This document shows, piece by piece, positions 7,350 to 53,224 of a stretch of 64,000 bases of DNA. Under the pieces are notes generated by a model that was not told where the DNA came from, did not search any database, and worked only from the letters and a program-made list of their open reading frames with translations. This DNA is from Eledone cirrhosa (lineage: Eukaryota). Every line of letters starts with the position of its first letter. Within the stretch, counting starts at the first letter, position 1. The stretch lies in NCBI GenBank assembly GCA_964016885.1, contig OZ024747.1, positions 79,422,001-79,486,000 of the forward strand, in the 5' to 3' direction. The translations under genes were made by a program, and so were the position numbers.

Positions 7350-7396
<47 letters not shown>

Positions 7397-7558
7397 TAAC
7401 AGCTTAAAGGTTAAGCAAAGAATCGGTGCTTTCACCCTTAACGGGATAAATCTTTGCTCTAGGGTTATATATTTGATATATATGTATCCTTATCGAGCGC
7501 TCTTTGGATTTTAGTCTTCACATTTATTATTATTATTATATATATACATAATACATAC

Positions 7559-7618
<60 letters not shown>

Positions 7619-8178
7619 TGTCTTGAGCCCGGTTTCCGTGGTGTGAAACGACTGAGTGTACAAGACTTCCCCCATCGCAGGGTTAAACCCCCAGCTATTG
7701 CTGGTTCTCATTTTGAGCTGAGTCTACTGGAGCAACAGTAAAATGAAGTGTTATGCTCAAGAACACAACACACAGCCCAGTGCATTGATGTGTAATGTTC
7801 AGTTACTGGGTTACCAGTTTGAGCACACAATGCTACCGGCGTGGGATTCCACGTTTGCGTCTTCACCAGTTTCGGTATCGGTAACAAGCAGAGTGTTCGT
7901 AATAATAAGAAGCGGGAATGAAGTATCAATATAGTATCAATTGACTAGCTCAAGGTGCGATCGGTAATGATTGAGATTCCACAAGCCTATAGATTCCAGA
8001 GTCGGGCCCGATCACTACCGATCACACCTTGAGCTGACTGATTGTGAAACGCGCGTTACGTGTGAATAAAAAAGAAAAAGATATATTGATATTATATTGA
8101 TACTTAAATTATTCTTTTCCATTTATCGTTTTCTGTACGCCCGGCCGACTAACTCACTTGATATGCAAATTAGGCTGC

Positions 8179-8552
8179 TCAGCCGTTAATATGCATAAGG
8201 AAAGTATATTTCAAACGTTCAATCATCTGACAAGAAGGTATACGATGCTGACGATAACTAATAAGCTTGAAACTAGTACATCGTTCCTGTGTCAGTGTTG
8301 AACAAAAAGGCGACGATGGTTGCCGAACACTGTACGGCGTAATTCGGGCTGTTTGTTTACAAACAAACCGAACATTATAATAAATGTTCGGTAAACCCAT
8401 ACGTACATATATATATATGTGTGCATGTATGTATATATATACATACTACTGTACGTCTATATACATATATGTATGTACGTATATATACTTACATTTAAGT
8501 ATCAGCCGTACTAAGAGTGAGAAATGAAATTTTGTTTCATTCTTTTCCATTT
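8179..8552 (+). mobile_element. Dispersed ~370-bp non-coding element containing a minimal hammerhead motif; inverted copy at 42855..43220
   Basis: The two copies align by eye along their length; both lie next to (TA)n. Confidence 0.8.
8242..8284 (+). ncRNA. Minimal type I hammerhead ribozyme motif
   Basis: acgatg-CTGACGA-taactaataagctt-GAAA-ctag-TA-catcgt: stem I, conserved core, palindromic stem III (ACTAGT), UH site. Confidence 0.72.
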
Positions 8553-8577
8553 ATATTGATACTTTGTTCCCATTTAA

Positions 8578-8667
<90 letters not shown>

Positions 8668-9439
8668 ATATATGTAGGAGGTGAGTTTTATTGTAGTACA
8701 ATAAAGCAATGCAGATATCGGATAAGAAGCACTCTACAGTTTGTAGGACTGGAGTATACATAATATATAAGATCAAAAGATGGTTAAAAGAGTTCCATGT
8801 ATTTTATTATGCGCATTTCAAAAACAAATATCATTCAATAACATTTGTGTTTTCATCAGATAAAATAGGAAGACATGATATGAAGGTTAAAATACACTTG
8901 TGAATAGTGCAGTTTTAAATCAACATATATATATATATATGTGTGTGTAAGTGTCTGTACGTGTGTGTATGCGTGTATATATATGTGTGTGTGTGTGTGT
9001 GTGTCTGTGCACGTGTGTATGTGTGTGTGTGAAAGAAATAAGAAACACAATATTCGTTTAACGGTTTAATGGGTCCAAGGGAGGTTAATCCTGTTATTAA
9101 AGGTGTTTATATGTGTGTCGACATATCGTGGATATTATAAGTTATCGTTACCCCAATGATACAAGTGTAGTAGAACCCTCTCTAGCGTGCAGAATAGAGG
9201 TGCCAACCATCTTGTGGTTCCAGCAGGCAGAATGGAGAAAGCACTTCCCCAGAGAATAATGAAAGAGTCTCGTTGAACTAGATACACGTGGAGCTCACTC
9301 TGCCGGGTGGCTAACTTCGTTACGATAACAGTAAGTAGGGAGATGATAGAGGACCAAGAACACCAGAAGTGCTATAGGTTCAATGTTAATATTATTAACT
9401 ATTTCTGGGGCTGTCATTATGTATCACTATGTATGTATC

Positions 9440-9480
9440 CGGTGTTGTCGAGTTATGGCTAATCCGGAAGTTGTTTTCAT
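9440..9480 (+). promoter_or_regulatory. Putative promoter of the FAAP100-like gene
   Basis: Locally CpG-richer region with ETS-type CCGGAAGT at 9464..9471, just upstream of exon 1. Confidence 0.4.
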
Positions 9481-9559
9481 GCCTTCCGTCTGCTTACGTA
9501 TAGCGGGAACATCAAAATCTCATAACTTACGTGTTTCTATGTTTTGCTGAATTTTCGCA

Positions 9560-9649
9560 ATGAAAACATTGAAGCTGCCCGATAGACATATTACGGTGGC
9601 TTTACACGAACAACATTGGTTGTATGTCTATTCGGGAGGAACACGGCAA
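9560..9649 (+). CDS. FAAP100: FAAP100-like exon 1 (MKTLKLPDRHITVALHEQHWLYVYSGGTRQ)
   Basis: ATG, GTGAGT donor at 9650, phase 0 matches exon 2; LYVYS resembles the FAAP100 N-terminal VYVYD. The start codon is uncertain. Confidence 0.6.
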
Positions 9650-10779: not shown

Positions 10780-10819
<40 letters not shown>

Positions 10820-10824
<5 letters not shown>

Positions 10825-11040
10825 AAAAAATATGACCCCGACGGCAGAGCTCAAGCCGTTTCGACGGCTATTTCTAGACTAAATTAGAATCTAATTTAGT
10901 CCAGAAATAGCCGTCGAAACGGCTTGAGCTCTGCCGTCGGGGGTCATACTTTTTCCTATTTCCCACTCTACTACTCTAAGTATTGAGTACTCTGGTGCAT
11001 TATGGTCCATCTAGTTCCTTACCATAATTCCTTTGTTATA
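10820..11040 (+). mobile_element. Fold-back element in (TA)n: ~140-bp near-perfect palindrome (10820..10959) plus a unique tail with GTATTGAGTAC
   Basis: Arms are directly visible; a related half-copy lies at about 56245..56292. Confidence 0.8.
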
Positions 11041-11057
11041 TATATATATATATATAT

Positions 11058-11315
11058 AGTGGTAGAACACTGGAAGCTAATATCCGTAGTGGTAGAGCAC
11101 TCAGTCCATGGGACGAGTTAGGTAGAAGTGGTTACACAACAGTTAGTTCACCATACCGAGAACAATTGTTTCACCTTAGCGGATCCTCAGCTCGGAATGG
11201 GCATGATTATAGGTCCTTCCTGTTCCTATAATCATGCCCATTCCGAGCTGAGGATCCGCTAAGGTGAAACAATTGTTCTCGGTATGGTGAACTAACTGTT
11301 GTGTAACCACTTCTA
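11058..11315 (-). mobile_element. Fold-back element in (TA)n with 91-bp perfect arms (11123..11213 / 11225..11315), each carrying a hammerhead motif
   Basis: Perfect inverted repeat; ccgag-CTGAGGA-tccgctaaggt-GAAAC-aatt-GTT-ctcgg at 11243..11282 and its reverse complement at 11156..11195. Confidence 0.85.
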
Positions 11316-11769
11316 TATATATATAGGATAACAATAAATCGTTAAAGGTAATCCGATAAGAGTCTGTGAAAACTACTTATCATGGACAGTTTAAGCGTAC
11401 GGTGCTGTGTGACTCAACAAGAGGTTTATGTTGGTGACGATTTTATGACTTTGCTTGTATTCTTATGTAAATATATCTTGGAATAATAAAAAAGTGAAGA
11501 ATAAGATGGTTTGACTGTAAATAAATATCCTTGTTTGTACTGTCAACTATGTTATTCTGCACTTTTTTATATATATATATATCATTTCATTTTATGTCCG
11601 CTTTTTCCCTGCTTGCAAGGGTGGGACGGGAACTGATTCTGGCTTGATTTCTACAGCTGGATGCCCTTCCTAACACCAACCTCATTTACAGTGAGTGGTG
11701 GGTGCTTTTTTGCCGTGGCACCTCCACGACCAATGATATGGACCCCTGTCCCTATCATCTCATTTCTAC

Positions 11770-11896
11770 AGCTGAGTTAACTGGAGCAATGTGAAATAAA
11801 GTGTCTTGCTCAAGGAAACAACACATCACCCGGTCTGAGAATTGAACTCACAACCTTTTGATTGCAAGGCCAATGCTCTAACCACTAAGCCATGTG

Positions 11897-11897
<1 letters not shown>
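11770..11897 (-). mobile_element. tRNA-derived SINE (family C); related pieces at about 7710, 21935, 39395 and 63920
   Basis: Minus strand reads TGGCTTAGTGGTTAGAGC...GAGTTCAATTC...CCTTGAGCAAGACACTTTATTTCAC (A/B boxes plus a CORE-like segment). Confidence 0.75.
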
Positions 11898-11967
<70 letters not shown>

Positions 11968-11974
11968 ATATCTG

Positions 11975-12138: not shown

Positions 12139-12177
<39 letters not shown>

Positions 12178-12912: not shown

Positions 12913-13127
12913 TAATGATAAAAGGCTAAATTGATGGTGGGATTTGAGCTCAGAGTGCAGAAACCCAGAACAAATACTGCCATAGCATTCTAGTCAACAT
13001 TCTAACGACTTTACCAATTTGCTTCTGTACAAAATAAATCGCATAAACTTAACAAATATTTAAAGTAAAATCAATAATTGTGTTTTTATTCATAAATTGA
13101 TTTAATCTTTCTTCTCTTTTGTAAAAG

Positions 13128-14098
13128 GTCAGGTTCTGCAACTGCCACAGTTGGAAAAGGAAATGATTCCATCTTTGATGATCTTTTATCAAACTCTTCA
13201 GGATTAAACTTCGTACAAAATACTGAGCCAACTTCATCCATACATCCACAGGATTCTCTTTCTCAATTAACTCCTTTCTCCACTGCATTGTGTATTTTCA
13301 ATGATTTCATTATTGTCTGTTCTGTTGCTAATGATGTGTGCACTGTAAACATATATCGAAAAGAGGATACATCTTCTGTCTCTGAAAAAAATGTCACCAG
13401 TACCTTGGTGGTACCATACTTCAGTAAATATGTCCCTATGCAAAACTATGACAGTCAGTCATGTGGAAAGTACATGAATCTTTATTTAATTACATCTTCT
13501 GACAATTCTTTAGTTCACTGCTCCCAAACCATCCAACTTCCATCCATGGTTTTCAGTTCGTTGTTTGGTGCAGAGGCCAGTATATTACATTCAGCTGTGA
13601 TATTATTAACTATGCCATCTGGGTGTGTTTACCATTTCCCTCTTAAACAGTGGACACCTCAATACAATTCCGTGGGTTGCAGCCTGTCTATCCTCTGTAA
13701 TCTGAATGCTCCAGTTGTCAAAGTATGTTTTATTCATCTCCAGAAACAATTTGACAGTGACCCACAAACTGAAACCCTATCTAATTCCCAACTGGTTGCA
13801 CCTACCAGAGAATTCCATTATTTTCCATGCTTACTTCTGGCTGCTAAGAATGGCAAATGTTTTGTATTTTCTTCACCAAATAATTTCAATAATCAACTCA
13901 GAGTACTAGAGACCATTAATTTGGAAGATTGTCCAATATCAGACTGTTGTTTGGGAATCAAACCACACCAGTTAATCTACACAACAAAGAGAAAGATTAT
14001 ACAACTTCATTTTGTTTATAATGAATCCATTAGACAAATCCACAAACAGATTTCATCTTTGTCTAGAATTTCTACCTTGGCAACTCTTCAACTAAAAG
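13128..14098 (+). CDS. FAAP100: FAAP100-like exon 3
   Basis: Open frame containing FSSLFGAEASILHSAVILLTMPSGCV, similar to the FAAP100 signature FGLLFGADATLLQSPVILCGLPDGQL; AG/GT borders. Confidence 0.85.
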
Positions 14099-14200
14099 GT
14101 GGGGTTTATATATTTTTTTTTATATTATATTTATTTCTCCGATGTTTATGCTGTGAATCCCGATTAGATATATACATGTGTGTTTTTATATTTTTTTTAG

Positions 14201-15076
14201 ATGACAACACGTTGCTATGTTTATCCACACATGGCCAATTCCACAAGCTATCTATATCTGAAGAAGGATTTAAGATGAACACAAAATTGAAACAAGAAGA
14301 GGAATCTATTCCACAGCTTTTTGCTCAAATGGAAAACATGAGTAAAAAGATTACAATAGCTTCAGAAATGTTGGAAGCTCAGTCCCATATAATTTCTCAG
14401 TTGGTTGTTGGCAGTCACATTATGTGGAGACAGTTTGTGTCTAGCAATATCCAGTGTAAACTGACTGTTGACAAAGACAGCTATGGAAAAACAATCCTTC
14501 AATGTGTGCTGACTAATGGCAAGCTAACTTTCTCGTCTGACTGGTCATTTCTCATTGAAGCTACAACTAAACAAAAATGTCAACAAGGAAGTCACACAGC
14601 GTGTCACACTTTTAAAACTTTATCTCTTGCCAATGGTTTAAAGCCTGAGGAATCTGCCAAGATTGACTTTACATTGGATATCTTGGCACCATCAGACACT
14701 AGAATTTGCATTTCTGCTTGGCTTGTATTCAACTTAAAATCTGGTATGTTTTATTTAGATTCTCCAAATGAAACTTCTAAAAGTTTAAAAACCCAACTCT
14801 CTAAGGGATTGGCTATTCCTATTTATAAAGGAAACACTGATTTCTTATCTTTTATTTTACCTTCAGAAAGGAAAGAATATAAGATCCATTCCATTTCAGA
14901 GATAAATGTTCCTTCTTTAACTTCAATTGTACAAAAAATTGCCTGTGATAAACCAATCTATAAAACTTTTTCTGACCTCCACAAAGATCTTTCTACTGAA
15001 TCAGAACAGATGTTAACTTATACAATTGACATTCCTCCTTCTCTTCAAACTTTCCTGTTTAGTCATAGCTGTACAG
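14201..15076 (+). CDS. FAAP100: FAAP100-like exon 4
   Basis: T-rich AG acceptor, GTAAAT donor; coiled-coil segment followed by LQCVLTNGKLTFSSDWSFLIE, similar to FAAP100 CVLENSS..LDQGWTLCIQ. Confidence 0.85.
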
Positions 15077-15947
15077 GTAAATATTCAAATTCCATTTTAA
15101 TTTAATTTTATTCATTTTGTATAATTTGATCATTTTTCTTACTAAGCATGTATCTGTTATATTTTTACCATTAGAGGTTTTTATTTGTTTTGGTACTGTT
15201 TAACTCTTTCATTAACATATTTCTAATCTAAAATATTGCCTCTGATTTTCTGTTAATTTTGAAAATAATTGAAAATTTGGATGGATTTAGTAATATAACT
15301 AACTTTCTCATTATTAAATTGGTGCTCAAAGCATGACTTAACAAATGTTCTTGCATAAAATTATGATGGCAGGCTTTTAGATAATTATAGACATTTTAAA
15401 ACAAAGTTATTTTATTGTCAAACCAGTGGCGGTTTCAGGTGGGTTGGTATCAAAATATGACAGAAACCTGTAATTTAGTGGTTCCTTAAGAAGCTATGAA
15501 TGGCTTGTGAGAACCAACAATCTGATATAACTAATCTCATCACTTCCTCTGTCCCGAGTACATTCTAGTGTCAACACAGTAGTTTTTCCATCAGCAGTCA
15601 TTGTTCAATTACATCTCATGATTATATCAGTGCATCTAATGTTGCTCTTCAACATTTAACTTTTGTTTTTTTTCTTATACCAAGCAACACTTTATGTATA
15701 ACCTTTTAATTCTTAATGTATGTACCACATGAAATCACATTAATAAGACATTCTTGAAAAGTACAAAACAGCACCATGACTATCACATTAAATATTAACC
15801 TCTTTACTCTAACACTGCAAATTTTGACAACAATCTGTCTACTAGCAAAGATACTATAAACATTTGAATGAACAAACCTGTTTTTAGATATTTTCTACTA
15901 AATCATTACAGGATGTTAATAGTTAATCCTAATTTCTATTCTGAAAG

Positions 15948-16177
15948 ATCCAAACCACCAATCATGTCTTCTCAAAGATTTATTGTCTAAGATGAAAGTA
16001 GTGATGCCATGTGATGTGATCGGATCAGAGTCATCAATAACTCTCAGGTCATCTGATTGTGGAGATCTGGTTATTACTGTTCATCAGCAAGATGATGCTA
16101 AATACACCCTGGAAATCCAAGCTGCCAACCAAGTAGCCATTGCTGAAGCTGTCCAGACCATCTTACTTCGACTTAAG
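15948..16177 (+). CDS. FAAP100: FAAP100-like exon 5
   Basis: Phase-consistent; LEIQAANQVAIAEAVQTILLRLK resembles IQVESSSLADICRAHHAVVGRMQ; GTAGGA donor. Confidence 0.8.
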
Positions 16178-16676
16178 GTAGGAAACGTAACATTTGGGTC
16201 TGTAGAAAATTAGAAGAAAGACTAATCAAAGCCCACCCCCACATCTCTCTCTATGCTTGTTAGTACTACAAAAGACATTTCTTTAATCATTTTATTACCA
16301 TATTTCTAATGACATATACTTCCCATGATTTTCAGTTAATTTATAAAATAATTAAATATTTGTCCTTTTTGTTAATATGTTTAGAACATAACTTAAGAAA
16401 TGTTCTTACATAAATTATAATTGATGGTTTAAATTTAAATATGAACACTTTAAAATAAATGTGTTTGTGTCAAAGAAACAGGGACAGTTTCAGGTGCGTT
16501 GATATCAAAAGGGGTTTGAAATAATCTCAAATGTTTTTATTAATTACCTACCATCTGTAATGTTAGTATGAAATTGTCTTGGTGGTTTCTCTGCTGTGTG
16601 TATCTTGACTGTTATATATATAACACTTGGTTTCTTTTATTTTGATTCTTTGCTCTTATATTTGTTGTTTCAACAG

Positions 16677-16739
16677 AAATTGTTACCTGACAAACTTGCT
16701 GTCATATTGGATTGTTCCAAGTTTCTTCATGAGTCAGAG
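16677..16739 (+). CDS. FAAP100: FAAP100-like exon 6
   Basis: CAACAG acceptor, GTGAGT donor, 63 nt, phase 0/0. Confidence 0.75.
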
Positions 16740-16973
16740 GTGAGTTTGATATTTTTGTTGTTACTACATAACTCCATGAACCTTAAACATTTCTTGGAGC
16801 TTGTCATACATTCTAGATATTACCTCTATACCACAATGGATCTATAGCTAGTGTCTTCTCTTCATTACTTAACATCAGGTAAGTCATGAGATTGAACCAT
16901 CAGTGCACTGCTTAATAATTCTATTGACAAGACTATACAAACATCAAAACAGACATACACACACTCATATATA

Positions 16974-17050
16974 CAGGGTGTGGCAGAAAAACCTCACATA
17001 TTTTACACAGCCAACTCTTAAAATGTGGGAGGTATTTTTGCTGCACCCTG
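16974..17050. mobile_element. 77-bp Tc1/mariner-like MITE
   Basis: TA|CAGGGTG...CACCCTG|TA with imperfect internal inverted repeats. Confidence 0.7.
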
Positions 17051-17102
17051 TATATACTTTCCAGTTCACAACATTCTGAGGTGTCTTTGTTTTCCCATTC
17101 AG

Positions 17103-17246
17103 ATAATTAAAGAAGAATTGAAATCAATCCAAGAAGATGTGGACAAGATAAAAATACTCGATAACAACATTATGACCCGGCTGTTGTATGCCTGCCTAAA
17201 GTTAAGGAATCTTGATTTCATGATAACATCAGATTTGTATTCCTAA
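17103..17246 (+). CDS. FAAP100: FAAP100-like terminal exon 7
   Basis: TTCAG acceptor; RLLYACLKLRN resembles the FAAP100 C-terminal RLLQVYRQLRH; stop TAA. Spliced CDS 2514 nt, about 837 aa. Confidence 0.8.
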   Translation: MIKEELKSIQEDVDKIKILDNNIMTRLLYACLKLRNLDFMITSDLYS

Positions 17247-24094: not shown

Positions 24095-24966
24095 AGTCTC
24101 GTATATCCGATTTCTATACGATAAAAAAGCGTACCAAAGAACACAAGACTTTACTAACGTCTGGGTGAGCAAACAAAATGAAAACTTTCTACTAGCATTA
24201 GCTCAGCCGATGTACAAAAACATCCTCAAAAAAGTAGCAGAAGTAAGCAAGGTGAAAACACTAAACACACCTTTCAAACAGAAATTTCTCGACAATGATT
24301 GGGACTACTACATTAATATAGACAACATAAAAATACATGAGCATGAGAGTGTTTAAGAAAAAATTAGAAATCCAAAGTATAGACATTCAAGAATTTGTCC
24401 AAGACTTATGGGACCTATTAAACCAAACTTGGCCGAAGAAAAATACCTTTGTCATGGAAGGTGTACCCAACAGTGGAAAGTCCTTTATTACTAAATCGAT
24501 AGCTAAACTATTCAGATATACCAGCACAATACACGGAACCTCGTCATTTCCTTTTATGGACGCAGTTAACTGCGAGATTATTATTTTCGAAGAACCAAAC
24601 ATGATGCTGGAAAGCTTCATCCATTTAAAAAATTTTCCGAAGGAACAGACTGCTCAGTGGAGGTTAAATATAAACCTTCAGCTAAAATAACCAGGATGCC
24701 AATCATCATAACTTCAAACTCTCCTTTCGATAGAAATGCGAGAAAGAAGCTTTTAAAAGCACTGATTAAGTACATGTTCAGACATGAATCACACTTTCTC
24801 AAATCAACTCAACTACAATTGGATCCTAACATTTGGAAGCAATTGTTCAATGAATACGTAACCGAGTTAAGTTTACAACACAAAATATCAGACGACGAAC
24901 TAAATATAAATGAGGTGCGTGATGCATTAGAAATGCCAATAACAAAGAGACCTGAAAACAACGAAC
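24095..24966 (+). pseudogene. NS1: Endogenous parvoviral element: NS1 SF3 helicase fragment with two frameshifts
   Basis: Walker A PKKNTFVMEGVPNSGKSF, Walker B IIIFEEP, B' FKKFSEG...VEVKYK and motif C PIIITSN, spread over three overlapping frames. Confidence 0.88.
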
Positions 24967-26700: not shown

Positions 26701-29700
26701 TCATAACTGGTATTCATTTCATTGAGCTTAGTGAGATGAAAGGTGTATTTGAACTCAAGATAAGGACAGAACTAAATACTAAATGACCAGCAATTTGGGG
26801 GATAATCAATTAAATCAGTCCCAATTCTTGATTGGTATTTTATGTTATTGAAAGGCAAAGTTGACTTTGGCGGGTTTTGAACTCAAAACATAAAGAGCCA
26901 GAACAAATACCAGAAGGCAATTTGTCTGACACTAACAATTCTGCCAATCTACAGCATTAAAAATAAGAATTTCTGAGACATAGGGCCACAAATTGGGTGG
27001 TGGAGGGGTAAAATCAATAAAATTAACTAATTCTTTATTGATAATTTACTTTATCAACTCCTGAAGAAAGAAAGAAAAAGACAAAGATGACCTTCATGGA
27101 ATTTGAACTCAGAAACATTGCAAAGCATCTTGTCCAACAGTCGAACAATTTTGCCAATCTACTGATCCTGGACTGGTAATTTATTTATCAACCTTTGGTG
27201 GGATTTGAACTCAGAGCGTAAAGAGTCAAAACACATACTATTTAATTTGACTGTTTAATGACTGACAATTTGGCACCTTACATCATCAGTTAACATCTGT
27301 TTCTCCATACTGGCATGGATTGAACAAGATAAACTAAATCAATACTTATTTAGAGCTATTGTCATTGCTGAATAGCCATAGCTCACATAAATTCTAGTTT
27401 TTGCATTGTTTCTACAGCTGGATGCTATCTTTACATATTTTTAAGAATTGCAAAAATAACAGAATTTCTGTAGATTTGTAGCAAATTAAATAAACATAAT
27501 TCAGATTTTTGTATTCCCTTGATATAAATCCAACCAATCATTTTTTTGTTTTCATGGGTTTTTATTTTAAATATAACTTAACAATTTTGATACTAAGCCA
27601 CTTCTATAATATAAAACTATTGATTTTAATGTGTTTATATCTATCTAAGAACCTTTAAGTTAGTTATGCTCCGAACACCATCTTTATAATGAAAAAGTTA
27701 TATTACTAAATCACCCCAAATTCTTATTTTCAAAATGATTTGAAAAACATTGGCAGTGTCTTTCATTGGAAATATAACAAAATGGTTAATTTATTTAGAT
27801 ATTTTTTTTATCTAAAACCCTTTTATTATAATTTTTATGTAAAAGCCTTTGTTTCAAACATCAGGTAAATAATGAGAAAATTAGTTAATTTTATTTAATC
27901 CCTTTAAATTCTTATTTTAAAAACTATTTGCAAATCAGAGGCAGTGTATTTCAAAATACCTCTCTCTCTCAGGGAAGAGCAGATTATACAATACCAGTGT
28001 TTGAACTACTATGCTGCATGGCAGTGGGACATAAGCAGCTAAAAAGAAATGAAGAAAAATGGAACATATGAGCAAGGAAAATAGATGTTAAATGATGATG
28101 ATATATATATATATGTGTCTGGGTGTGTGATTACTCTCTCATTGAGTGCTTTGTGACAGCCTTCAAAAATCGTTTGCAAATCTGCTACTCGCAGCTGCAA
28201 CATCGGTTATACTCATTATTATTATTATATATATATTGAATTTTTCTGAATATTGAAAGCAAAAATAAAGTAATAAATGCATATGTTCATGAAAACACAC
28301 CGAGAAAGAAATTTGTATGAGAGAGAGAGAAACTATATATATTTGTGTACATAAGTAGAAACTATCTTCATCTCCATGGCTTCATAACAGTGGAACCTCT
28401 AGTGGAGGTTATTTCATTATTTATTAAGACCCTAACCGTCTCATGTCCAACATCTCCTTTCTCTTCCTCCCCAACTTCCTCTGAATTTGAGCCTATGTTA
28501 GTGTGATCCACCTGAAAGTATAGAAATAATATTTGGGCCATAGTTTCACTTGATTCAACAACAGGTGAGTATTGTCCCCAAGAAAACAACACAGAGTTTC
28601 AATAATTAAATTTTCATGCCTTGCATACCGTCGAAACCTCTGTTATTGGTTTCTACACAGAAAGACAGCCCACCCTAGGAAGGATCCCTGTGTGACAGGC
28701 CATTCTCCATGGCAATGCCTTTGCCATTTTGTTTGTGGGACACGGCTGAATCACCGCTCAGACTGAGGTGTAGAGTCTGTCCCTCCCTCTCTTGCTTTCC
28801 TTTTTTTTTGTTTCATTTAAATATATTATTTTTTTAATTGTAAATATTATATTCTATTTTTCAATTTAGCATTCCATTTTTAACGTGATTTTCTCCAGTT
28901 ATCAATAAAGCATGGGTAAATTTTTACAACTATACCTATCTCACATTGGTGGTGAAATTTATGTTTTGGACAAATCTGGCTGTCAAAACCGTTGGAAATT
29001 ATTTGATTTTTACTTAACTAAAAAACAAACGATTTCTGACAGTTTTGAAGATCAGATTCATTAAAAGCACAACAGAAACTATAGTAAAAAAAAAATTTCA
29101 CCATTTAAAGCCAGACAGGTGTAATAGTAAAGAAATTTTTTAGGGTATCACCCAGCTAACTAAAAGAATCAAATCATTGTCAATGGTTTTGAAAATCAGA
29201 TTTGTTCAAAACGCACCAAAACATAATTTTCAGCTCCTACACAAGGTAGATGTAATTGTAAAGATTAACCAAAGCAGGAATTTAAGAAGTTTTTCTTTCT
29301 CTTATTGAAGAAAAGAGAATAAAAATGTCAAAATAAAAATCAATTTTTCATTTTTTTAACAATGATTGGGTGCAAAATGATTCCATTTGTTTGGAAGGGG
29401 CAAAGGGTCATATATGTCTAGTTTTGAAATAATAACAATTCATTTGAAGCAGAAATAATATAATTTCATACTCAAACATGGGTCATACATAACCATAAAT
29501 AGCACCAGACCTTCTAGATTGTAAATAATTTTAACATTGGCTCAAGGCCAGCAATTTGGAGGAAGGGGAAAAAAAAAATCAATTATATCAACCCCAGTAC
29601 TTAACTGGTACTTTTTCCTTTCATCCTTCCATGGGGTTAAGATAAGTTGACCTTGGTGGGATTTGAACTCAGAATGTAGAAAGCCATAACTAAATACCAC

Positions 29701-30586: not shown

Positions 30587-31399
30587 TTCTTTTGTAACCC
30601 AATATATATTATGCAGAGGTGGCCACCTGGACCTACTTGCTATATATTCCTGTTGCATTACAGATATCTGGGGTTGAAAACATTGTTTCAAAAAGGAGCT
30701 CATAATGAGCGTGAAACCTTTCAGGAAGCCCACAAGTTTAACCTCTGCTTTAGCAAGGAACAATGGCCTTTGCTGTATCATAATAGTCTGATATGCTGAA
30801 GAGTTTCACGACTAGCCCACTGTATGAAGAGCCAATATAATAGCAAACACACACAAACAAACATTAACTCGTACACATTATGGTAGGCTGAGTGTTTGTA
30901 AGAGTTCAGTGGCAGATCATGCATGTCCATTCACCATTAACAGTAACAGCAACAAAGAAACACCCTGTAGTTATATTATTACTATAGTTATTTAACAATA
31001 ATATATATAATAATTTGTTATATTTATGCATGTATATATATATAAGTTTCTCCCGAATGAAACAGTTCTAGTCCTGTAGAAGCCATTTCTATATTATATA
31101 TATATACTTGCATATACATACTATACACACAACAGACAGTAGATGGAAGCATGTGTGTGTGTATGTGTGAAAAGAGAGAGAATGAGTGAGTGAGCAAGGA
31201 AGGAAATTGTGATCAAGTATGTGTTTGAAAATAAAAATTTACAAAGTTTTTCAAAAATAATAAATATTAACATGAAAGAAAAATAGTTTAGAAATGTGCA
31301 ACCTCTTCCCATGAGATTAATAGAATTTATAAAATAGAGAAAAATAGAAATAGGTTTGGCAACAAATAGAAAAAGGCAATGGTTACTGGATATGTATAA

Positions 31400-37860: not shown

Positions 37861-38848
37861 AACCCTCCCTAGTGTTGGTGTAAAGTACCAAGAGGACTCT
37901 TCAGTAGTGTCAACACAACAACCTCCCTAGTATTGGTGTAAAGTACCAAGAGAACTCTTCAGTAGTGTCAACAACATAACAACCTCCCTATTATTGGTGT
38001 AAAGTATCAAGAGAACTCTTCAGTAGTGTCAACAACATAACAACCTCCCTAGTATTAGTGTAAAGTACCAAGAGAACTCTTCAGTATCAATAACAACAAC
38101 CTCCCTAGTATTGGTGTAAAGTACCAAGAGAACTCTTCAGTTGTGTCAACAACACAACAACCTCCCTATTATTGGTGTAAAGTATCAAGAGAACTCTTCA
38201 GTAGTGTCAACAACATAACAACCTCCCTAGTATTGGTGTAAAGTACCAAGAGATCTCTTCAGTATCAATAACAACAACCTCCCTAGTATTGGTGTAAAGT
38301 ACCAAGAGAACTCTTCAGTTGTGTCAACAACACAACCTCCCTATTATTGGTGTAAAGTATCAAGAGAACTCTTCAGTAGTGTCAACAACATAACAACCTC
38401 CCTAGTATTGGTGTAAAGTACCAAGAGAACTCTTCAGTATCAATAACAACAATCTCCCTAGTGTTGGTGTAAAGTACCAAGAGAACTCTTCAGTTGTGTC
38501 AACAACACAACAACCTCCCTATTATTGGTGTAAAGTATCAAGAGAACTCTTCAGTAGTGTCAACAACACAACAACCTCCCTAGTATTGGTGTAAAGTACC
38601 AATGGAACTCTTCAGTAGTGTCAATAACACAACAACCTCCTTAGTGTTGGTGTAAAGTACCAATGGAACTCTTCAGTTGTGTCAACAACACAACAACCTC
38701 CCTAGTGTTGGTGTAAAGTACCAATGGAACTCTTCAGTTGTGTCAACAACACAACAACCTCCCTAGTGTTGGTGTAAAGTACCAATGGAACTCTTCAGTT
38801 GTGTCAACAACACAGTGACCTTCCTAGTGTTGGTGTAAAGTACCAATG
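37861..38848. repeat. ~57-61-bp tandem satellite, about 17 units, with trimeric higher-order structure
   Basis: Unit AACCTCCCTAGTATTGGTGTAAAGTACCAAGAGAACTCTTCAGTAGTGTCAACAACATAAC; three variants recur in order. Confidence 0.95.
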
Positions 38849-39809
38849 GGAATGTATGTGTATGATCTGACACTAGACTGTGTGGGAGATAATATCTTGA
38901 CTTAAATGTTTCATATCTGGCTTGGATTCTATGAGTGGTTGCTCTTCCTAACATCAACCACTTCACAGTGTGTACTAAGTGTATTTTATAATGGCATCAA
39001 CACTAATATATCTTGTTTTGGTGTAGGACAGAACAAAGGAGAGACACAAAATAAATTAGTCACTGAGGAGGTCACAGAAAGTGTGGCAAAAGAATTTTAA
39101 CAATAAACAACCATGTGGTTATTAAACTAACAGACTGGGGTTTATAATAAATTGAAGTGAAACCAACAGGTGCGTGCATTTTTATTGCCAACATGACCCT
39201 CCCAAAATCTAACAATATATATATATATATATATATATATCGACAGTTGATCGACAAGATCTCAGACCTCATTCGCTTAACAAGTGGTGTGGAGCTCGTC
39301 AAATTGGACCGAGGAAGCAATGTTTCCATTGGTCTTTCCAATTGCTACTACTATCTGTCGGTTGCAAATCCAGGCAGAAGGAGTATTGTTAAATAAAGTG
39401 CCTTGCTCAAGGACATAACACATCACCCGGTCCAGGAATCAAAATCACAATCTCGCGATGGCGAATCCAATTGTCTAACCACTCAGCCACACACATATAC
39501 AATTTCATTATCTACAATTGAAAGAATTACTGTCTATAGTGTGTTACAATATCATTGAAGCCAGTTGAGTACGAGAATGATGGTAGCTCTGGTGTTAATG
39601 CTAAACACTAACTGTCATTTTGAATGTCAAGTGGATTTTTAGTTAGCAGCACATACACACACTTCTGGTAGGAAAATGAAATGGCAGGGTATTTTTGCCA
39701 GACAAATTATCTTCTGTGGCATTCATAAGCTAGATCATTCACCTACTATCACGTGTGTGTGTTTGTATAAGAAACATATATATCTATATGTGTGTGTGTG
39801 TGTGTATAT

Positions 39810-39998
39810 ATATTTATTAAAATAACAGATTAAAGTTTAAGCAAAGAATCGCTGCTTTTGAGTGAAAGCAGCAATTCCTTGCTTAAACTTTAATCTGTTA
39901 TTTTAATAAATATTTGCTCTATGGTTCTTATATATTTGATATATATTTATCCTTACGAGCCCTCTTTGGATTTTAGTCTGCACATTTATTATTATTAC

Positions 39999-40000
<2 letters not shown>
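39810..40000 (+). mobile_element. Fold-back element (~100-bp palindrome plus tail); same family at 7392..7540 and 48430..48620
   Basis: Shared TTAAGCAAAGAATCG.TGCTTT arm and CCTTA..GAG...CT.TGG.TTT.GTCT tail; flanked by (TA)n. Confidence 0.8.
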
Positions 40001-40029
<29 letters not shown>

Positions 40030-40449
40030 TAATTAGAAAGTGAACAACACAAAATATAACTACTCCATTACCAAAGTACCAAAGGTTTCTGGATCCGTAG
40101 TTATATTTTGTGTTGTTCACTTTCTAATTAAATAGCTCTGTTCTATACATAGAGCACTCTTTTTTCCTTTGCTTTTCCATCGGAATTACCTAACACACAC
40201 ACATATATATACACACACACACACACACATATACATGTGTGTGTGAGTCTATAAGTACAAATGACAGAAGAGTGTACTCAATACAATGTGTAGAGTGTAC
40301 ATCTGTAACGAAGCCAGACTACATACAAACATACATACACATTGCATTATATATTAATGAAAGGTAATGAAGCCTCAAGGATGTTGGTACATTTCTAACC
40401 ACCAGGGGATAGTTCATAATACACACACACAGATATATACACACACACA

Positions 40450-40836
40450 CACACACAGATATATATATAATCAAAAGTTTAACAAGGTTCATTGATTAAT
40501 CAATGAATAAAGTTTTACAATAGATTAGAAGCACTCAACAATGAGTTTTTCTGGAGTTAATATTACTTCAAAATATTAATAAATATAGACATTCATGTGA
40601 TCAAATATATTTTATTATACATATTTCAGAGGTACTGAGCTATTTCATCAGTACGTCCTCATCAGATAAAATAAATTGACTGCCAAGACTGGAATTGAAC
40701 CATCAGCACAGTTGAGGTATGTCAGACATCAATTTATTTTATCTGATGAGAACGTACTGATGAAATAGCTCAGTACCTCTGAAATATGTATTATAAAATA
40801 TATTTGATCACATGAATGTCTATATTTATTAATATT

Positions 40837-40841
<5 letters not shown>
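40450..40841 (-). mobile_element. Fold-back element with ~113-bp arms (40567..40679 / 40729..40841), each containing a hammerhead
   Basis: Inverted arms visible; unique tail carries AAGCACTCAACAATGAGT. Confidence 0.88.
40608..40673 (-). ncRNA. Type I hammerhead ribozyme motif (mirror copy on + at 40735..40800)
   Basis: tattttat-CTGATGA-gga c gtactga/tcagtac c tct-GAAA-tatgta-TA-ataaaata. Confidence 0.8.
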
Positions 40842-40881
<40 letters not shown>

Positions 40882-40884
<3 letters not shown>

Positions 40885-41310
40885 GTTATGTTTAATTTGT
40901 TGGGATTCAACAAGCTTAAAAATTGTTATAACTGATATAAAGCACTCAACAATGAGTGGAGTAAATACACAATATATTAATAAATGGAAACTATATTTAT
41001 AAAACCATATTTATTTTATTATATATATTTCAAGGGCAACCAAGGCAAATTATGGTGCGCTTTCATCAGATAAAATACAGATTTGTTTTATAAATAAATA
41101 TTGACATACCCGGAAAAAAGACAACCTTAACGGTTCATGAAGCTTCAACCGTTAAGGTTGTCTTTTTTCCGGGTATGTCAATATTTATTTATAAAACAAA
41201 TCTGTATTTTATCTGATGAAAGCGCACCATAATTTGCCTTGGTTGCCCTTGAAATATATATAATAAAATAAATATGGTTTTATAAATATAGTTTCCATTT
41301 ATTAATATAT

Positions 41311-41315
<5 letters not shown>
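40882..41315 (-). mobile_element. Fold-back element with 169-bp perfect arms (40967..41135 / 41147..41315), each containing a hammerhead
   Basis: Perfect inverted repeat with 11-nt loop; unique tail carries AAGCACTCAACAATGAGT. Confidence 0.9.
41205..41270 (+). ncRNA. Type I hammerhead ribozyme motif (mirror copy on - at 41012..41077)
   Basis: tattttat-CTGATGA-aagcgcacca...tggttgccctt-GAAA-tatata-TA-ataaaata; 8-bp stem I, predicted cleavage after 41262. Confidence 0.82.
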
Positions 41316-41354
<39 letters not shown>

Positions 41355-42282: not shown

Positions 42283-42601
42283 TATAATAGTTACAAGTAA
42301 TAAAACACGAATTTGAATCTATCAATTTCGACATTCACCAAACTTATATATCTAGATATGTATGTATGTATATACATATCTAGTAGTAACACAACAGATA
42401 GTTCACCATATATATATATAGATAGATATATATATATAGAGAGAGAGATATATAGAGAGAGACAGAGATTTAATATAGAAATGGCTTCTACAGGACTAGA
42501 ACTGTTTCATTCGAAGGAAATTTTGTATATACTCTACTAATGTATTGAGTACCTCACTTATTGTGGTTACCCCTATTGAGCCCGGGACTCACACACCCCC
42601 C

Positions 42602-42683
<82 letters not shown>

Positions 42684-42807
42684 AGAGTGCGTGTGTACAC
42701 ATGAGATTTTAGTTTTGTTTGATTAACAAATCTGATGAGCAAATTGGGGTTGGAGTCGGGTCTATAACATTAATATGTATCCTGAACCACGCATCTGTGA
42801 AACGGTC

Positions 42808-42857
<50 letters not shown>

Positions 42858-43118
42858 GGAAAAAATGAAACGAAATTTCATTTCCCACTCTTAGTGTGGC
42901 TGTTACTTAAATATAAGTATGTACACGTACATACATATATGTATACAGACGTACAGTAGTATGTATATATATATACATACATGCACACATATATATATGT
43001 ACGTATGGATTGACCGAACATTTATTATAATGCTCGGTGTGTTTGTAAACAAACATCCCGTATTAAGCCATAGTGTCTAGCAACCATCGTTGCCCGTTTG
43101 TTCAACACTGACAAAGGA

Positions 43119-43161
43119 ACGCTGTACTAGTTTCAAGCTTATTAGCTATCGTCAGCAACGT
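43119..43161 (-). ncRNA. Minimal hammerhead ribozyme motif (paralogue of 8242..8284)
   Basis: acgttg-CTGACGA-tagc taataa gctt-GAAA-ctag-TA-cagcgt. Confidence 0.72.
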
Positions 43162-43557
43162 ATACCTTCCTGCCAGATTGTTGAACGTATATACTTACCT
43201 TATGCATATTAACGGCTGAGTATATATATATATATATATATAGTATAAATAAAGTTTCATACACTTAACATGTATGTGCTATCATTCGTTTCAGGTCCAG
43301 TCGTGGCTGAGGTAGTGATTGAGTCGCTCCAACCAGCAAAACTACGGAGCTTTGGAATAATAACATCAAACGCATGTCTGTCTCCAGATTAATACATTAC
43401 AGTGTCTCACAAATGAATTACCTAATAGGTCATCTGAAGATGTCGTGCCATGGATTGCATCGTGGTATCATAATATAATCATTTCACCACAGGAATACGT
43501 ATTATGGTTAATTGGGTAATTAAAGAAGTTGTGAAATCTAACCTTCATATTGTATTA

Positions 43558-46020: not shown

Positions 46021-46056
<36 letters not shown>

Positions 46057-47781: not shown

Positions 47782-47842
<61 letters not shown>

Positions 47843-48200: not shown

Positions 48201-50505
48201 TATGATTTAGCTTCGCATGTAGAATTACATAAAAATTAAATTATGATATATATATATGTGTGCATGTCTTTAATTATTGCGGTAAATATACATATGCACC
48301 ACAATATTTTCAGTTTAATTAACAAATCGTAGAGAAGTTAACTTCGTCATTCTTCCTGGGGCCGATTGAATTACGCCTGTATTAGAATTCACTAATTACT
48401 AGTACACACATATATATATGTGTGTATGTATATTATTAGCACATTAAAAGTTTAAGCAAACAATTTTTGCTTTCATCCTAAAGCTGGAGTGAAAGCAGAA
48501 ATGATTTGCTTAAACTTTTAACCTGTACTAATAATATATATTTACAGGTTTAAATATATATACTGTATTACATCCCTTATTGAGTCCTCTCTGGTTTTTT
48601 GTCTTTGTAGTTATAACTACTATATATATATATATATCATCATTTTACATTCACATTCCATGCTGGCATTGTTTGGGAGGGTGATCACGTTCTTAGACTA
48701 GACAAGTTGGATGACCATGTCTAGCTCGTGTTTCATTTCAACATGGTTTCTACGGTTGGATATTCTTCCTAATGCCAACTACTTTACAGTGTCTACTTGG
48801 TGTATTTTATAGTGGCCCTAGCTCAATCAATTTAGAGAACATACTGGGTGCATTTTATCATGCCAACAACATTACCTCTTTATAGATTGTACAAGAAGAA
48901 TTTTATCATGGCAGCAGCTCTAATACTTTACAGAGTGTACTGGGTACATTTTATTATTGTCTAAAACTAATATGCTAAGGAAGCTGTGAAGTAACAAGAA
49001 AAATACTGTGCTGGTTGACTTGAAGATAAACAATGTACATCCAGCCTGAAAATTGATAGATGGTTGATAAAACCCCCATAAGTGATCAATAAACAACTAA
49101 AAGAGCTCTACCTGAATTAGATTAGTGCAGGATCTGCAGCATATAAGGTTAAAGGCAGTATAATACTATTGTATAAAGTACTTAGATTGGGGTTCCTGAA
49201 AATGTGGAACCCAGAGCTAATGCTAATCTTCCTACATTGTTAATTTGGTATTGAGGAAAGATATAGTTTAGCTAAGATCAAAGATGTTCATGAGTAGTTT
49301 CAGGGAATCTAATTAGCAGAAGGTGATAATTGTTTCTACTTTTGGCACAAGGCCAGCAATTACCCAGTAAAAGATAGTTTAGTCAAGTCATACTCAACAA
49401 CTGATCAATGGGCATATTCAGGATCAAATACATCAGACGTACCATTAAGACAAAAATAAAGTTGTCAGCAGCATAAATATCAGGAAAATCATTGATGAAA
49501 ATTAAGTCTAGGACCCCCCCCCCCCCCCCCCCCAAGCTGAAATTCTGAAGGACACAAGGTGATAATAGCAGGTAATCGGAGCTGATGGCTATAAGAGAAT
49601 GAGATGGTCAAAGTGGATGGTGATCAAAGCTGGATGATAAACACAGCAGGAGGTGATCAGAGCAGGAAGTTAATTACAGCAGGATGGGCCTATGGGTACT
49701 CAGGGGAAGTATGCAGAAGCTGCCTACATGTAATTAGATATTAATAGTTCTGTAATGGATTGCCTGGATGAGTATTGTCGTTTTAATGATGCTATTGGAT
49801 TGGTGTTGTGGTGCAAACCTATTTAGGAGTAATCCTGTGTGGCTTAAGAGTTGGATGTATGGCTTGGGTTGATGTAACTTGAGCTGCTTCTGTGCCAGTG
49901 ACATGTACTGTTATTTCTGGTTGAGTGATGGTATGTGTATGTAAATGTGGCCCTGTCAGAACAGGTGCTTATGTAAGTGCTAGACCTGGGTGGTGGCTCT
50001 GAGTATGGTCTTGTAGGGTCTGTTGGTGAGATTTAGGTGGAGTCATGATCATGTGAGCATCTGTACTGTGTGGACCTAGGTGAGTGTCAGCCAGTGCGGA
50101 GGCAAAATTGTGTGTGCAAATGTATTGTTTACCTAAGGCTATATATGCTGGTGTGGATGTGTACAATGGATGTTGGGAAAATAGTCTTACCCTCCTGGTT
50201 CATAAGAAGGTCTGAAGTGTTTACACAAAGTTCATCCTTTTTATTTCATAGTTGTTCCTCGGTGATGATATGGCCAGTTAACCATTAGCCCTTTTGGCAA
50301 TCAGTCAAGAACCATCTGTTGAAAGGGCAAGAGCTCAGCCATTGTGCCTTGACTTATAAAATAACCATACTCTACTATCCCAAGTATCAAGTACTCTGTT
50401 GAGTAATGGTCTAACTAGTTCTAGTTATGTTTGGTTTTACCCTCATATATATATATAACCCATGCTAGTGTGGAAAGTGGACGTTAAACAAGCAGGATGA
50501 TGATG

Positions 50506-50552
<47 letters not shown>

Positions 50553-50784
50553 AGGCAACACGGTAAAAACCTCCCAGCCCCACACTGTAAATGTGGTTGG
50601 TGTTAGGAAGGGCATCCAACTGTAGAAAACCCGCCAGACAGTCCTATGCGAGCAAGACAACCACTCTTGCCTCAAGTGGGAAAACCCCCGTCCAAACCCA
50701 TGCAAGCGTGGAACACGGACGCTAAACCTGATGATGATGATGATATATATATATATATTTCTTCTTTAATTTCTCATTCTATTT

Positions 50785-50820
50785 TCTGATGAAGGACTAG
50801 CATCTGAAACATTAAGACTC
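50785..50820 (+). ncRNA. Degenerate minimal hammerhead motif; second family copy on - at about 35128..35165
   Basis: CTGATGA-aggactagcatct-GAAAC; the other copy reads CTTATGA-a-ggac tagc gtcc-GAAACGTT-aaga. Confidence 0.55.
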
Positions 50821-50913
50821 TTTTCCTACTATATCAAGCGTAAAACTGATACATTTCTTCATTGTACTGTGTTGTTTGCTTGTTATTTCTCTTTATTTTT
50901 TACACACACACGC

Positions 50914-50952
<39 letters not shown>

Positions 50953-51800
50953 ATAAAATCGACCTACAATTAGAAATGAGTAGCAAAGCACTCAACAAGG
51001 ATAGGCCCTCAGAGTAATAGCATACATTTAGATAGCTTGACAAATTGAAAATTGTGGCAGGCAAAACCCAGCCATACAATACCAAAACAACGAAAGAACT
51101 AATCAGGTTAGACAACAGACCTGGACAAATCGAACGATATTCTGCAATATGTCCGATATGTTTCTATGAATCTGAAATCATCAATCCAACTTACATAATA
51201 CGTAAGCTTGTGGTATTCTATGATCAAACAGGGGATTCACGTCATCGACAGGTATTTTGATATATATATATGTACATATACATACAGACACATGTATGCA
51301 CACAAACACACACACATGCATGTACCACACACATACATACACGTGCACACATACACATGCACACACACACACATATCTACAGCTCCCTCTCTACCTTTGT
51401 TCATCATGCCAACATCCACAGATGTTCAAACTGAATATCACCCACCTCACACTCTGTCTGGTAAGGTCATAGACACTCCTCATCATCACCACCATCATCA
51501 CCATCACCACAAATACCACCATCACTATCATCACCACCACCACCGCCGCCACCACCGTCATCATCACTACCGTCACTGCTGCCACCACCACCACCATATT
51601 CTGGTACTGATTATCTCATAAAAAGGTTTATATTATATATATATATATATATATACACATACATATGTGTGTCTGTATGTCTGTATTATGTTTGTGTGTG
51701 TGTGTGTGTGCATACACACACACACACACACAGTGACATACAGACACTTGGTAGAATTAACATGAATAGAAAAGAAAATCTTCTAAATCCTCGTGTATGT

Positions 51801-51849
<49 letters not shown>

Positions 51850-51986
51850 CGTGGGTGTGTGTGCGTGTGTGTAAGAGATATAATATATCTGTACCAATAC
51901 AATACTAGTCAAATAGTAATCTTGTGTATGACTAATATTATTATATCATCCCAATTGATTACTAACAGAGCCGTCTAGATCATGGA

Positions 51987-52044
<58 letters not shown>

Positions 52045-53224
52045 GTATATATATCTAGATCATGGAATATATATATACATATATATATGTATATGTATAT
52101 GTATATATATGTATATATATTATAAATAGAAGTGGCTTCTGTGGGACTAGAACTGTTTCATTCAAATGAAACATGTTTAGTCCTGTAGAAGTCTTTTCTA
52201 TATATGATATAGATGCCTATACTCTACCAATGTATTGAGTCCTTTTTTTTAACTGTGGTTATCCCTGGACACAACTTGGGAATCTACATCTGTCTCTCTC
52301 TCTTTTTCTCTCTGTCTTTCTCTTTCACTTTCTGTCTCTCTTCCTCTCACTCTATATATGTGTGTATGTAGAGGCCATGTGTATTTTGTTTAAAATAGGT
52401 ACACTGCATCCTTGTGTGTCGTAAGAATCGATTAAAAGAGTTGAGGTCAGGAAGGACATCTGACTGTAAAACATTGTCCCAAACACCCTGTCCAAACTAT
52501 GCCAGTCTGGACATGCCGAGGTGAAAACGATAATGATGATGATGTAGAAATACATATGGTTAGCGTTATTGCTGTTTACGCAGTTATTACGATACTTATT
52601 TGTTGTGCTTATAATTTATATATATATACTTACAATACATGGCAATGTTTTCATTGATACTCAGAGTTTTATGATTGCATCTGATTAATCAAAACAGATT
52701 AGTCTAGTGTGCACCATCAATTTTCAACAATTATATCACATATACATTTATGCTACAAACACCATTTTAATAATGAAACAATTGATAAATTCTTCATGAA
52801 TTGATTCACATACAGCCTATGTTATTAGAAGTATGAGAATGAAAGGGTTAATTAATTCAAATACGGTGTATACCATTAGAAGTATGGTAACGAAAGGGTT
52901 AATTTAAAGGTGACAAACCAATGACAGAACCCCTATCAAGTTTCTATAACAACTGTAGTTAGATTACTTTAAAATAAAATTTTATAGTCTTATAAAAAAA
53001 AGGATTCTGTGGATAATACAGTACTCCCTGACTTATGACCCAACATGACTGAGTGATCAAGAAAGTTGTTTTGCAATCCTGAAGGCCTGATTTGCTACCA
53101 CTGTGTGGCATCTTTATATGATTTATTTAAATATCCCAGGGGCTTATTATTCTATGTATACATTAGATATTTGACTGAAATATACATTCATATATATTGG
53201 TAGGTGAATCGACAGAGTCCTTAA

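Follow-up and report, generated by a model that had tools for sequence, protein, structure and literature searches.

A predicted bulged hairpin in the tails of short hammerhead-bearing inserts of Eledone cirrhosa, probably derived from Hydra-clade Penelope-like elements

Short inserts in the window

The DNA analysed here (the window) is a stretch of 64,000 nucleotides from Eledone cirrhosa (assembly GCA_964016885.1, contig OZ024747.1, positions 79,422,001 to 79,486,000, forward strand), with the composition of AT-rich animal DNA and abundant TA runs. It contains 17 short inserts (3307 bp in total, ~5% of the 64 kb), which are probably 5'-truncated insertions of Penelope-like elements (PLEs) of the Hydra clade, with start sites set by a hairpin and with priming from both ends of the target. 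Five product types are distinguished, namely palindrome with tail (eight inserts), inverted arm with tail (two), direct copy with tail (three), tail only (two), and tail-less copy (two). All eight palindromes described in the initial annotation as the heads of a shared layout were located, with arms of 36–169 nt, three of them perfect (Table 1, where some arm alignments extend into the adjoining TA). That annotation also counted at least six sequence-unrelated families; the number stands, with probably about six or seven families among the eight elements listed, but not all of them are unrelated. Alignment groups 7392 with 39810 and 48430, 31040 with 42480 and 52125, and 10823 with 50340 and 56166 (names as in Table 1), and a hammerhead stem I is common to 8673, 40450, and 40882.

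The proposed flanking by (TA)n on both sides holds for the most part. Among 100 runs of at least 10 nt, 23 adjoin an element; the right flank of 52125 is no TA run, the closest microsatellite lying 112 nt further, and elements 40030, 40220, and 42480 terminate in (CA)n. The insert around 11412, previously thought to lack a palindrome, has a decayed one and a poor motif. Two clusters, at 10783-11582 (three inserts) and 39805-41350 (five inserts) with microsatellite between the inserts, resemble the outcome of repeated insertion into one (TA)n hot spot.

Table 1. Inserts in the window, with palindrome spans and arm identities
Element	Position	Strand	Structure	Palindrome (arm identity)	Detection
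7392	7392..7536	+	Inverted arm (hammerhead 3' half on - strand) fused straight to tail, no direct arm; hairpin 7456-7498 (GCTC/GAGC variant)		Alignment; held-out model match, E 0.17
8673	8674..8924	-	Direct copy: whole type I hammerhead (core 8859), hairpin 8755-8731, tail; absent from the initial list		Structural descriptor; hammerhead descriptor
10823	10823..11036	+	Palindrome (arms 10820-10888, 10890-10959; hammerhead 3' half), hairpin 10965-10988, tail	10820-10959 (67/69)	
11058	11059..11313	-	Perfect 91-nt palindrome, whole minimal hammerhead per arm (cores 11190 -, 11248 +), hairpin 11118-11099 with 1-nt bulge, tail	11123-11315 (91/91)	
	11326..11567	-	Doubtful member; palindrome decayed; TTGAGT box (11412) lacks good 5' partner	(32/36)	Unmatched by descriptor and model
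	28115..28225	+	Tail-only insert, hairpin 28133-28147 with one inner pair		
31040	31045..31094	+	Tail-less direct copy, 42480/52125 family; ends at end point of that family's inverted arms		
39810	39813..39998	+	Palindrome (39810-39858, 39865-39913) centred on hammerhead GAAA, hairpin 39916-39960 (GCTC/GAGC), tail	39810-39913 (47/49)	Hairpin missed by covariance model
40030	40022..40195	+	Palindrome (40028-40063, 40097-40132), spacer 40064-40096 = antisense hammerhead 3' half, hairpin 40135-40155, tail	40028-40132 (36/36)	
40220	40240..40330	-	Short direct or tail-only insert, hairpin 40296-40276		Descriptor
40450	40470..40840	-	Palindrome, whole hammerhead per arm (cores 40665 -, 40743 +), hairpin 40557-40533, tail	40560-40848 (117/119)	
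40882	40882..41320	-	Perfect 169-nt palindrome, whole hammerhead per arm (cores 41069 -, 41213 +), hairpin 40962-40944, tail	40967-41315 (169/169)	
42480	42470..42610	+	Inverted arm fused to tail, direct arm absent; hairpin 42531-42550		
48430	48430..48620	+	Palindrome centred on hammerhead stem II, decayed hairpin ~48562-48585, tail	48408-48566 (64/71)	Held-out model match, E 0.009
50340	50300..50444	+	Decayed direct relative of 10823; one mismatch in hairpin 50369-50392		
	50950..51259	-	Direct copy; six inner pairs in hairpin 51015-50990; intact hammerhead not found		
52125	52121..52270	+	Decayed palindrome centred just 5' of hammerhead GAAA, hairpin 52221-52240, tail	52106-52221 (45/56, decayed)	
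56166	56209..56291	+	Direct relative of 10823, without tail; hammerhead 3' half present; stops in (TA)n at the 10823 inverted-arm end point		

A bulged hairpin in the tail

Most tails had been thought to carry a linear motif of the form RYACTCAAYA, taken as a cis signal common to divergent families. Enrichment over background was observed for RYACTCAAYA (8 matches versus 2.70 expected, a count reached in 0 of 100 shuffles) and for TTGAGTRC (13 versus 4.70, 0 of 100 shuffles), and not for bare TTGAGT in the window (35 versus 47 expected). The exact RYACTCAAYA is present in just three of the eight listed elements, the copies at 48578, 52231, and 11412 are not exact, and those at 49390 and 63236 fall within no element. 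Both motifs appear to form the 3' side of a stem-loop with a bulge, RCTC-stem-loop-stem-YY-GAGY. In every good copy, oriented so that the tail comes last, RCTC is followed by an inner stem with its loop, then by the partner stem, a bulge of 1–2 nt, and GAGY, usually with NCT. Elements 7392, 39810, and 40030 have GCTC/GAGC in place of ACTC/GAGT and were therefore missed by the linear motif, and 11058, 39810, and 40030, all without the exact motif, bear the full hairpin. The shared signal is a secondary structure with compensatory changes and not a linear motif.

A descriptor of the hairpin gave 16 matches in the window versus 6.8 in 200 shuffles; matches with (TA)n 25–75 nt downstream numbered 12 (0.5 expected), and those with (TA)n upstream 1 (0.47 expected). 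Since this descriptor was built from the window sequences themselves, additional checks were made. Sites picked by the 3' box and the distance to TA only (n = 13) have a complementary 5' box in 10 cases, nine of which show at least two inner pairs. With one copy taken per family (10 families; of 14 rows, 4 were omitted because they were relatives or were too short), pairing is seen at 29 of 30 inner positions, versus 18.6 with the halves swapped and 5–12 when slid. In a plain MAFFT alignment of 12 copies, 95.7% of the cells pair versus 87.2% after shuffling (0 of 500 shuffles), with two-sided changes in three of the six hairpin pairs. The 50 inner cells include four G-U and no A-C combinations, which points to a hairpin on the hammerhead strand. 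A covariance model from 12 copies matched held-out elements at 48554 (E 0.009) and 7448 (E 0.17), with no match outside the elements in the window.

Hammerheads in the arms

By their sequence, the palindromes appear to be head-to-head inverted copies of pseudo-long terminal repeats (pLTRs) that carry type I hammerheads, either complete or in half. With a strict descriptor for type I hammerheads, nine whole cores were found at six loci, versus 0.03 in 300 shuffles, and four of the six loci (8673, 11058, 40450, and 40882) are in this insert class; other elements retain the hammerhead 3' half, with the cleavage site 26–58 nt 5' of the hairpin. Stem III of the window hammerheads is short and self-complementary, and PLE hammerheads, likewise described with a short, self-complementary stem III, are thought to act as dimers (PMC4209133). 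Most arms pass through the cleavage site, suggesting that the template RNA was either uncleaved or re-ligated, consistent with a reported use of uncleaved template (PMC11167929).

Hammerhead-like sequences occur elsewhere in the window. A ~370-bp family (8178-8551, + strand, and 42855-43220, - strand; 82% identical) adjoins TA runs and has a whole hammerhead and an internal TA/TATG run without the bulged hairpin, and is possibly a retrozyme monomer or a member of another PLE clade; a 25-nt inverted repeat at 7947-8035 lies upstream of its first copy. A small family at 50769-50902 (+) and 35043-35177 (-), 76% identical, has a minimal hammerhead-like core, also without the bulged hairpin. Other TA-flanked inserts lie at 42680-42808 (+) and 56319-56381 (-), one with a CTGATGA...GAAAC pattern and one with a TTGAGTGC box near a TA run; these two satisfied neither descriptor.

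Positions of the element ends

Element ends fall at one of two points, B and E, on either side of the hairpin. The outer end of the inverted arm lies 2–5 nt 5' of the hairpin in 10823, 11058, 39810, 40030, and 40882 (five of the seven measured) and 2–9 nt from it in 40450, and that of 52125, the seventh, could not be placed. The tail-less copies 31040 and 56166 stop where the inverted arms of their respective families stop. A tail is present in the other 15 copies, and in 14 of these it ends 30–78 nt past GAGY, or 51–93 nt when counted from the start of the hairpin. The order in the RNA is thus predicted to be hammerhead, 26–58 nt, site B, the conserved bulged stem-loop, 30–78 nt, and site E. 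Related copies differ in the palindrome centre, indicating that each palindrome was formed at insertion. In 40030, 7392, and 42480, the inverted arm contains sequence missing from the direct side; the spacer of 40030 corresponds to an antisense hammerhead half, so that its inverted arm is longer than the direct one.

Relation to Hydra-clade Penelope-like elements

The PLE-type origin proposed in the initial annotation is almost certainly correct: the arms bear hammerheads, the inverted copy with a one-sided tail is the published PLE layout, and the fixed terminal inverted repeats (TIRs) of a DNA transposon, which would have argued otherwise, were not found, as the outer ends agree at only 3–10 of 16 positions in 11 elements. 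The partners suggested there were Neptune, Nematis, and Naiad; the best match is the Hydra clade, not named there, which is very likely the source clade. Members of this clade are shorter than 3 kb, have canonical hammerheads, lie almost all in (TA)n, and include a family from Octopus bimaculoides (Craig et al. 2021, PMC8557442); recently active Penelope-like families have been reported in O. vulgaris (PMC13282606). Features that define the clade at the protein level are the RT phylogeny, the RWK/DKT motifs, the absence of CCHH, and a CxCX5C linker. A Naiad origin was rejected, since the window has whole hammerheads and Naiads are without canonical ones. In five cephalopod Naiad 3' ends inspected by eye no such hairpin was found; Naiad_Obim and Naiad_Ovul have the box pair without an inner stem ~190 nt in.

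The six published consensi of autonomous Hydra elements (PMC8557442, File S7, inspected by eye), which had no role in building the hairpin descriptor, show the hairpin clearly in four, weakly in one (Hydra-1_Amil), and not in one. It is located at the 3' end of Hydra-2_Amil and Hydra-2_Ajap, 43 and 38 nt past the cleavage site (counted by eye), and, with one mismatch, at the 3' end of Hydra-1_Crog. Hydra-1_Ajap has two hairpins at its 5' start and a 3' end that halts in a TA-like run, an arrangement that fits the PLE rule by which the next tandem unit begins with the tail. An exact 14-nt run is common to the hairpin at 40135 and Hydra-2_Ajap. When the supplement of Craig et al. was searched with six exact window motifs, no match was obtained; a second six gave four matches at Hydra termini and two within Naiad coding-like sequence. 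By these consensi, elements of coral, sea cucumber, and sea louse have the hairpin as well.

Proposed mechanism and alternatives

The hairpin is most likely a binding signal for the reverse transcriptase (RT) between two initiation sites. In this model, the RT-endonuclease would bind the hairpin on uncleaved tandem RNA and cut both strands of a (TA)n run, and cDNA would then be primed either at E or at B, the latter often adjoining a TA or TAT of the RNA. If one DNA end were primed, a direct copy with or without tail would result; if both were, one at B and the other at E, two cDNAs would run towards the 5' end of the RNA and be linked head to head, in many cases at the structured hammerhead, to give (TA)n, inverted arm, direct arm, tail, and (TA)n. 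The two start sites could account for all five product types. Twin priming by LINE-1 and template pairing by telomerase may be similar in kind. De novo addition of (TA)n by the RT was also considered as a possibility. That the hairpin positions RT initiation we consider fairly probable, and that two-ended priming makes the palindromes about an even chance. For a Poseidon PLE in vitro, both strands are cut and extended, a dimer is predicted, two internal starts bracket the tail, and uncleaved RNA is used (Frangieh et al. 2024, PMC11167929). A more specific version is offered tentatively, in which the hairpin, conserved from cnidarians to octopods, would be the landing site of a Hydra PLE RT dimer and set both starts; both (TA)n ends would be primed, the one at B through a 2–5 nt TA match as in telomerase template pairing, and the cDNAs joined head to head.

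The palindromes might instead arise by self-priming from elements with the same PLE origin and hairpin, the cDNA (or an antisense template) folding back at a hairpin such as stem II and copying itself to B. Such folding would agree with the position of the centres of 39810, 48430, 7392, and 52125, which lie at stem II or at the GAAA core, and with the 100% identity of young arms, and self-priming on an antisense template has been hypothesized in print (PMC3846280). However, a snap-back arm cannot contain sequence that the direct arm lacks, unless deletions followed, and this is at odds with the antisense hammerhead half in the 40030 spacer and with 7392 and 42480, which have no direct arm; a cause would also be needed for stopping at B, a start site according to the tail-less copies. 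We regard self-priming as rather unlikely. It is improbable that the hairpin acts as DNA or in transcription (as an endonuclease recognition site, an internal promoter, or a 5' end signal) and not as RT-binding RNA, given that compensatory changes and strand-specific G-U pairs point to a single-stranded fold and that element ends bracket the hairpin on both sides, although the outer boxes are almost invariant, two hairpins stand at the extreme 5' start of Hydra-1_Ajap, and the tail of the D. virilis element was reported to be necessary for endonuclease recognition of plasmid DNA (cited in PMC11167929).

Origins outside the PLEs fit less well. Non-autonomous Helentrons (HINE/DINE-1) combine asymmetric inverted repeats with a 3' stem-loop, and in mite HINEs one subterminal inverted repeat (subTIR) lies 2–4 nt from the 5' end and the other 38–60 bp from the 3' end, and a 3' palindrome is present (PMC4067079). 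This origin is highly unlikely for the window inserts, whose arms of 36–169 nt meet head to head, in contrast to subTIRs of 12–15 bp around an unrelated interior; the arms also bear hammerheads, their centres vary within a family, the flanks are (TA)n or (CA)n and not TT or T-rich, and the hairpin is present in autonomous PLEs. MITEs (miniature inverted-repeat transposable elements) of the Tc1/mariner type that target TA, or chance fold-backs beside an unrelated short repeat, would explain the TA flanks and the near-perfect palindromes, and the TA target-site duplication (TSD) of a MITE would be indistinguishable inside (TA)n. The lack of end-to-end TIRs nevertheless argues that the inserts are not MITEs; no transposase-coding partner with TIRs was seen, the tail is one-sided with fixed polarity, and the same tail stands behind direct, non-palindromic hammerhead copies such as 8673. 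We consider this origin extremely unlikely.

Returning to hairpin-set, two-ended priming of Hydra-clade PLE RNA, several observations weigh against it. Regarding the hairpin, the descriptor was drawn from the window sequences and the 10-family pair test is partly fitted; the covariance model missed 39916 and 11412; in isolated folding the outer helix has a probability of at least 0.6 in 8 of 14 copies and below 0.25 in 4 of 14; of 13 whole tails, 4 include the hairpin in their minimum-energy fold; from the MAFFT alignment, RNAalifold kept the four outer pairs alone; and three of these four pairs are nearly invariable. As to the hammerheads, the best 150 of 274 Rfam matches over the whole window were sub-threshold, mostly microRNA-like hairpins, with no hammerhead among them, and two local Rfam scans gave no hammerhead either, for which reason our own descriptor was used against shuffles. 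A six-frame search of the window for PLE peptide motifs gave scattered short matches only and no PLE open reading frame (ORF), so that the inserts, which do not extend far enough to include the RT/GIY-YIG ORF, have no direct tie to an autonomous element of this genome. The window likewise has no full-length copy, in which the direct partial tandem (pLTR-ORF-pLTR) of a PLE would be visible. Hydra-1_Obim, the sole published octopus Hydra consensus, ends before the hairpin position, and the hairpin, compared here with Hydra and Naiad ends, may not be specific to the Hydra clade with respect to Neptune, Nematis, and Poseidon. The window tails (51–93 nt) exceed the 30–40 bp published for PLEs, the site at which Poseidon starts has no homology to the cut DNA (PMC11167929), and the one-armed copies could be products of later deletions.

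Other features of the window

A host gene at 13096-17240 (+) is homologous to O. bimaculoides LOC106876609, has no Pfam match, and may resemble FAAP100. Its exon-rich frame (13096-15105) is 62% identical to Octopus bimaculoides and 53% identical to a protein that bears the label Argonauta hians, and this read-through frame appears to contain a short intron. An exon at 32630-33283 (-) has a CD225/dispanin-like domain, slightly below the Pfam cut-off (E 1.4e-5). A broken endogenous parvovirus-like NS1/SF3 helicase fragment occupies two overlapping frames at 24331-24974 (+) (Pfam Parvo_NS1, E 2.7e-9 and 2e-5). LINE-like RT fragments lie at 25639-26157 (+), 5744-6145, and 3146-3523, of which only the first has a Pfam RVT_1 match. 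The window further contains an 18-bp satellite of ~2.5 kb (1-2518) and a tandem array with a unit of ~60 bp (~37865-38850).

Implications and comparison with known systems

The origin of the inverted repeats and one-sided tails of PLEs is described as an open problem (PMC8557442, PMC11167929). If the proposed mechanism is true, the inverted pLTRs and optional tails would be explained without an antisense template, and a cis element of ~100 nt would be defined for a retrotransposon of less than 3 kb. A covarying hairpin between two natural end points would provide the in vitro assay already in use with a minimal RNA for mutation, and its geometry a genomic signature that tells two-ended priming from snap-back. 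The hairpin could also serve as a structure-based tag in annotating short PLE remnants, which might otherwise pass for unknown repeats or for MITEs. An RNA element that places initiation beside a short repeat-matching patch would be of wider interest, given that PLE RTs form the sister group of telomerase.

Among the systems described, the Hydra PLEs (PMC8557442) likewise have an octopus host, target (TA)n, are 5'-truncated, bear a canonical hammerhead close to the 3' end, and in one Repbase family include an inverted 5' copy, whereas the window inserts are ends of 50–440 nt without an ORF, from several divergent families in 64 kb. Naiad PLEs share the (TA)n targets, inverted copies, tails, and occurrence in Octopus, but have no canonical hammerhead and are only remnants in cephalopods, besides lacking the hairpin in the five ends mentioned above. 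Non-LTR retrozymes (PMC7229834; bioRxiv 10.64898/2026.07.22.740005) are likewise short, non-coding, and derived from PLE pLTRs with a type I hammerhead; they form head-to-tail tandem units, whereas those of the window stand singly or head to head and in many cases have half a hammerhead, and a retrozyme reading was rejected on this ground. In Adineta vaga, the Penelope families (Arkhipova et al. 2013, PMC3846280) have head-to-head inverted pLTRs, junction palindromes, and a tail on one end, but self-priming on an antisense template is invoked for them, TSDs are visible, and the available part of that report mentions no conserved tail hairpin. Poseidon PAc of Anolis (PMC11167929) resembles the window inserts in two internal RT starts around an optional tail, a stem-loop at the start region, extension of both strands, and an uncleaved template; its tail is 30–40 nt long, AC-rich, inside the ORF, and not homologous to the target, whereas the window tail is 51–93 nt long and non-coding as far as seen, with TA often beside B.

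A description of the hairpin was not found in the literature searched, although it could be mentioned in subscription papers on the structure of PLEs, in Repbase entries, or in the figure of the PAc fold; the main text of Craig et al. does not mention a stem-loop, and their supplement, as available, mentions no stem-loop, hairpin, or bulge. The inverted copy with tail, the hammerheads, and the targeting of (TA)n are already known for PLEs (also PMC8969392), so that the under-described association of retrotransposon, ribozyme, and microsatellite envisaged in the initial annotation is, as an association, on record for Hydra PLEs with an octopus member; as far as we found, it is the hairpin and its surrounding geometry that appear to be new.

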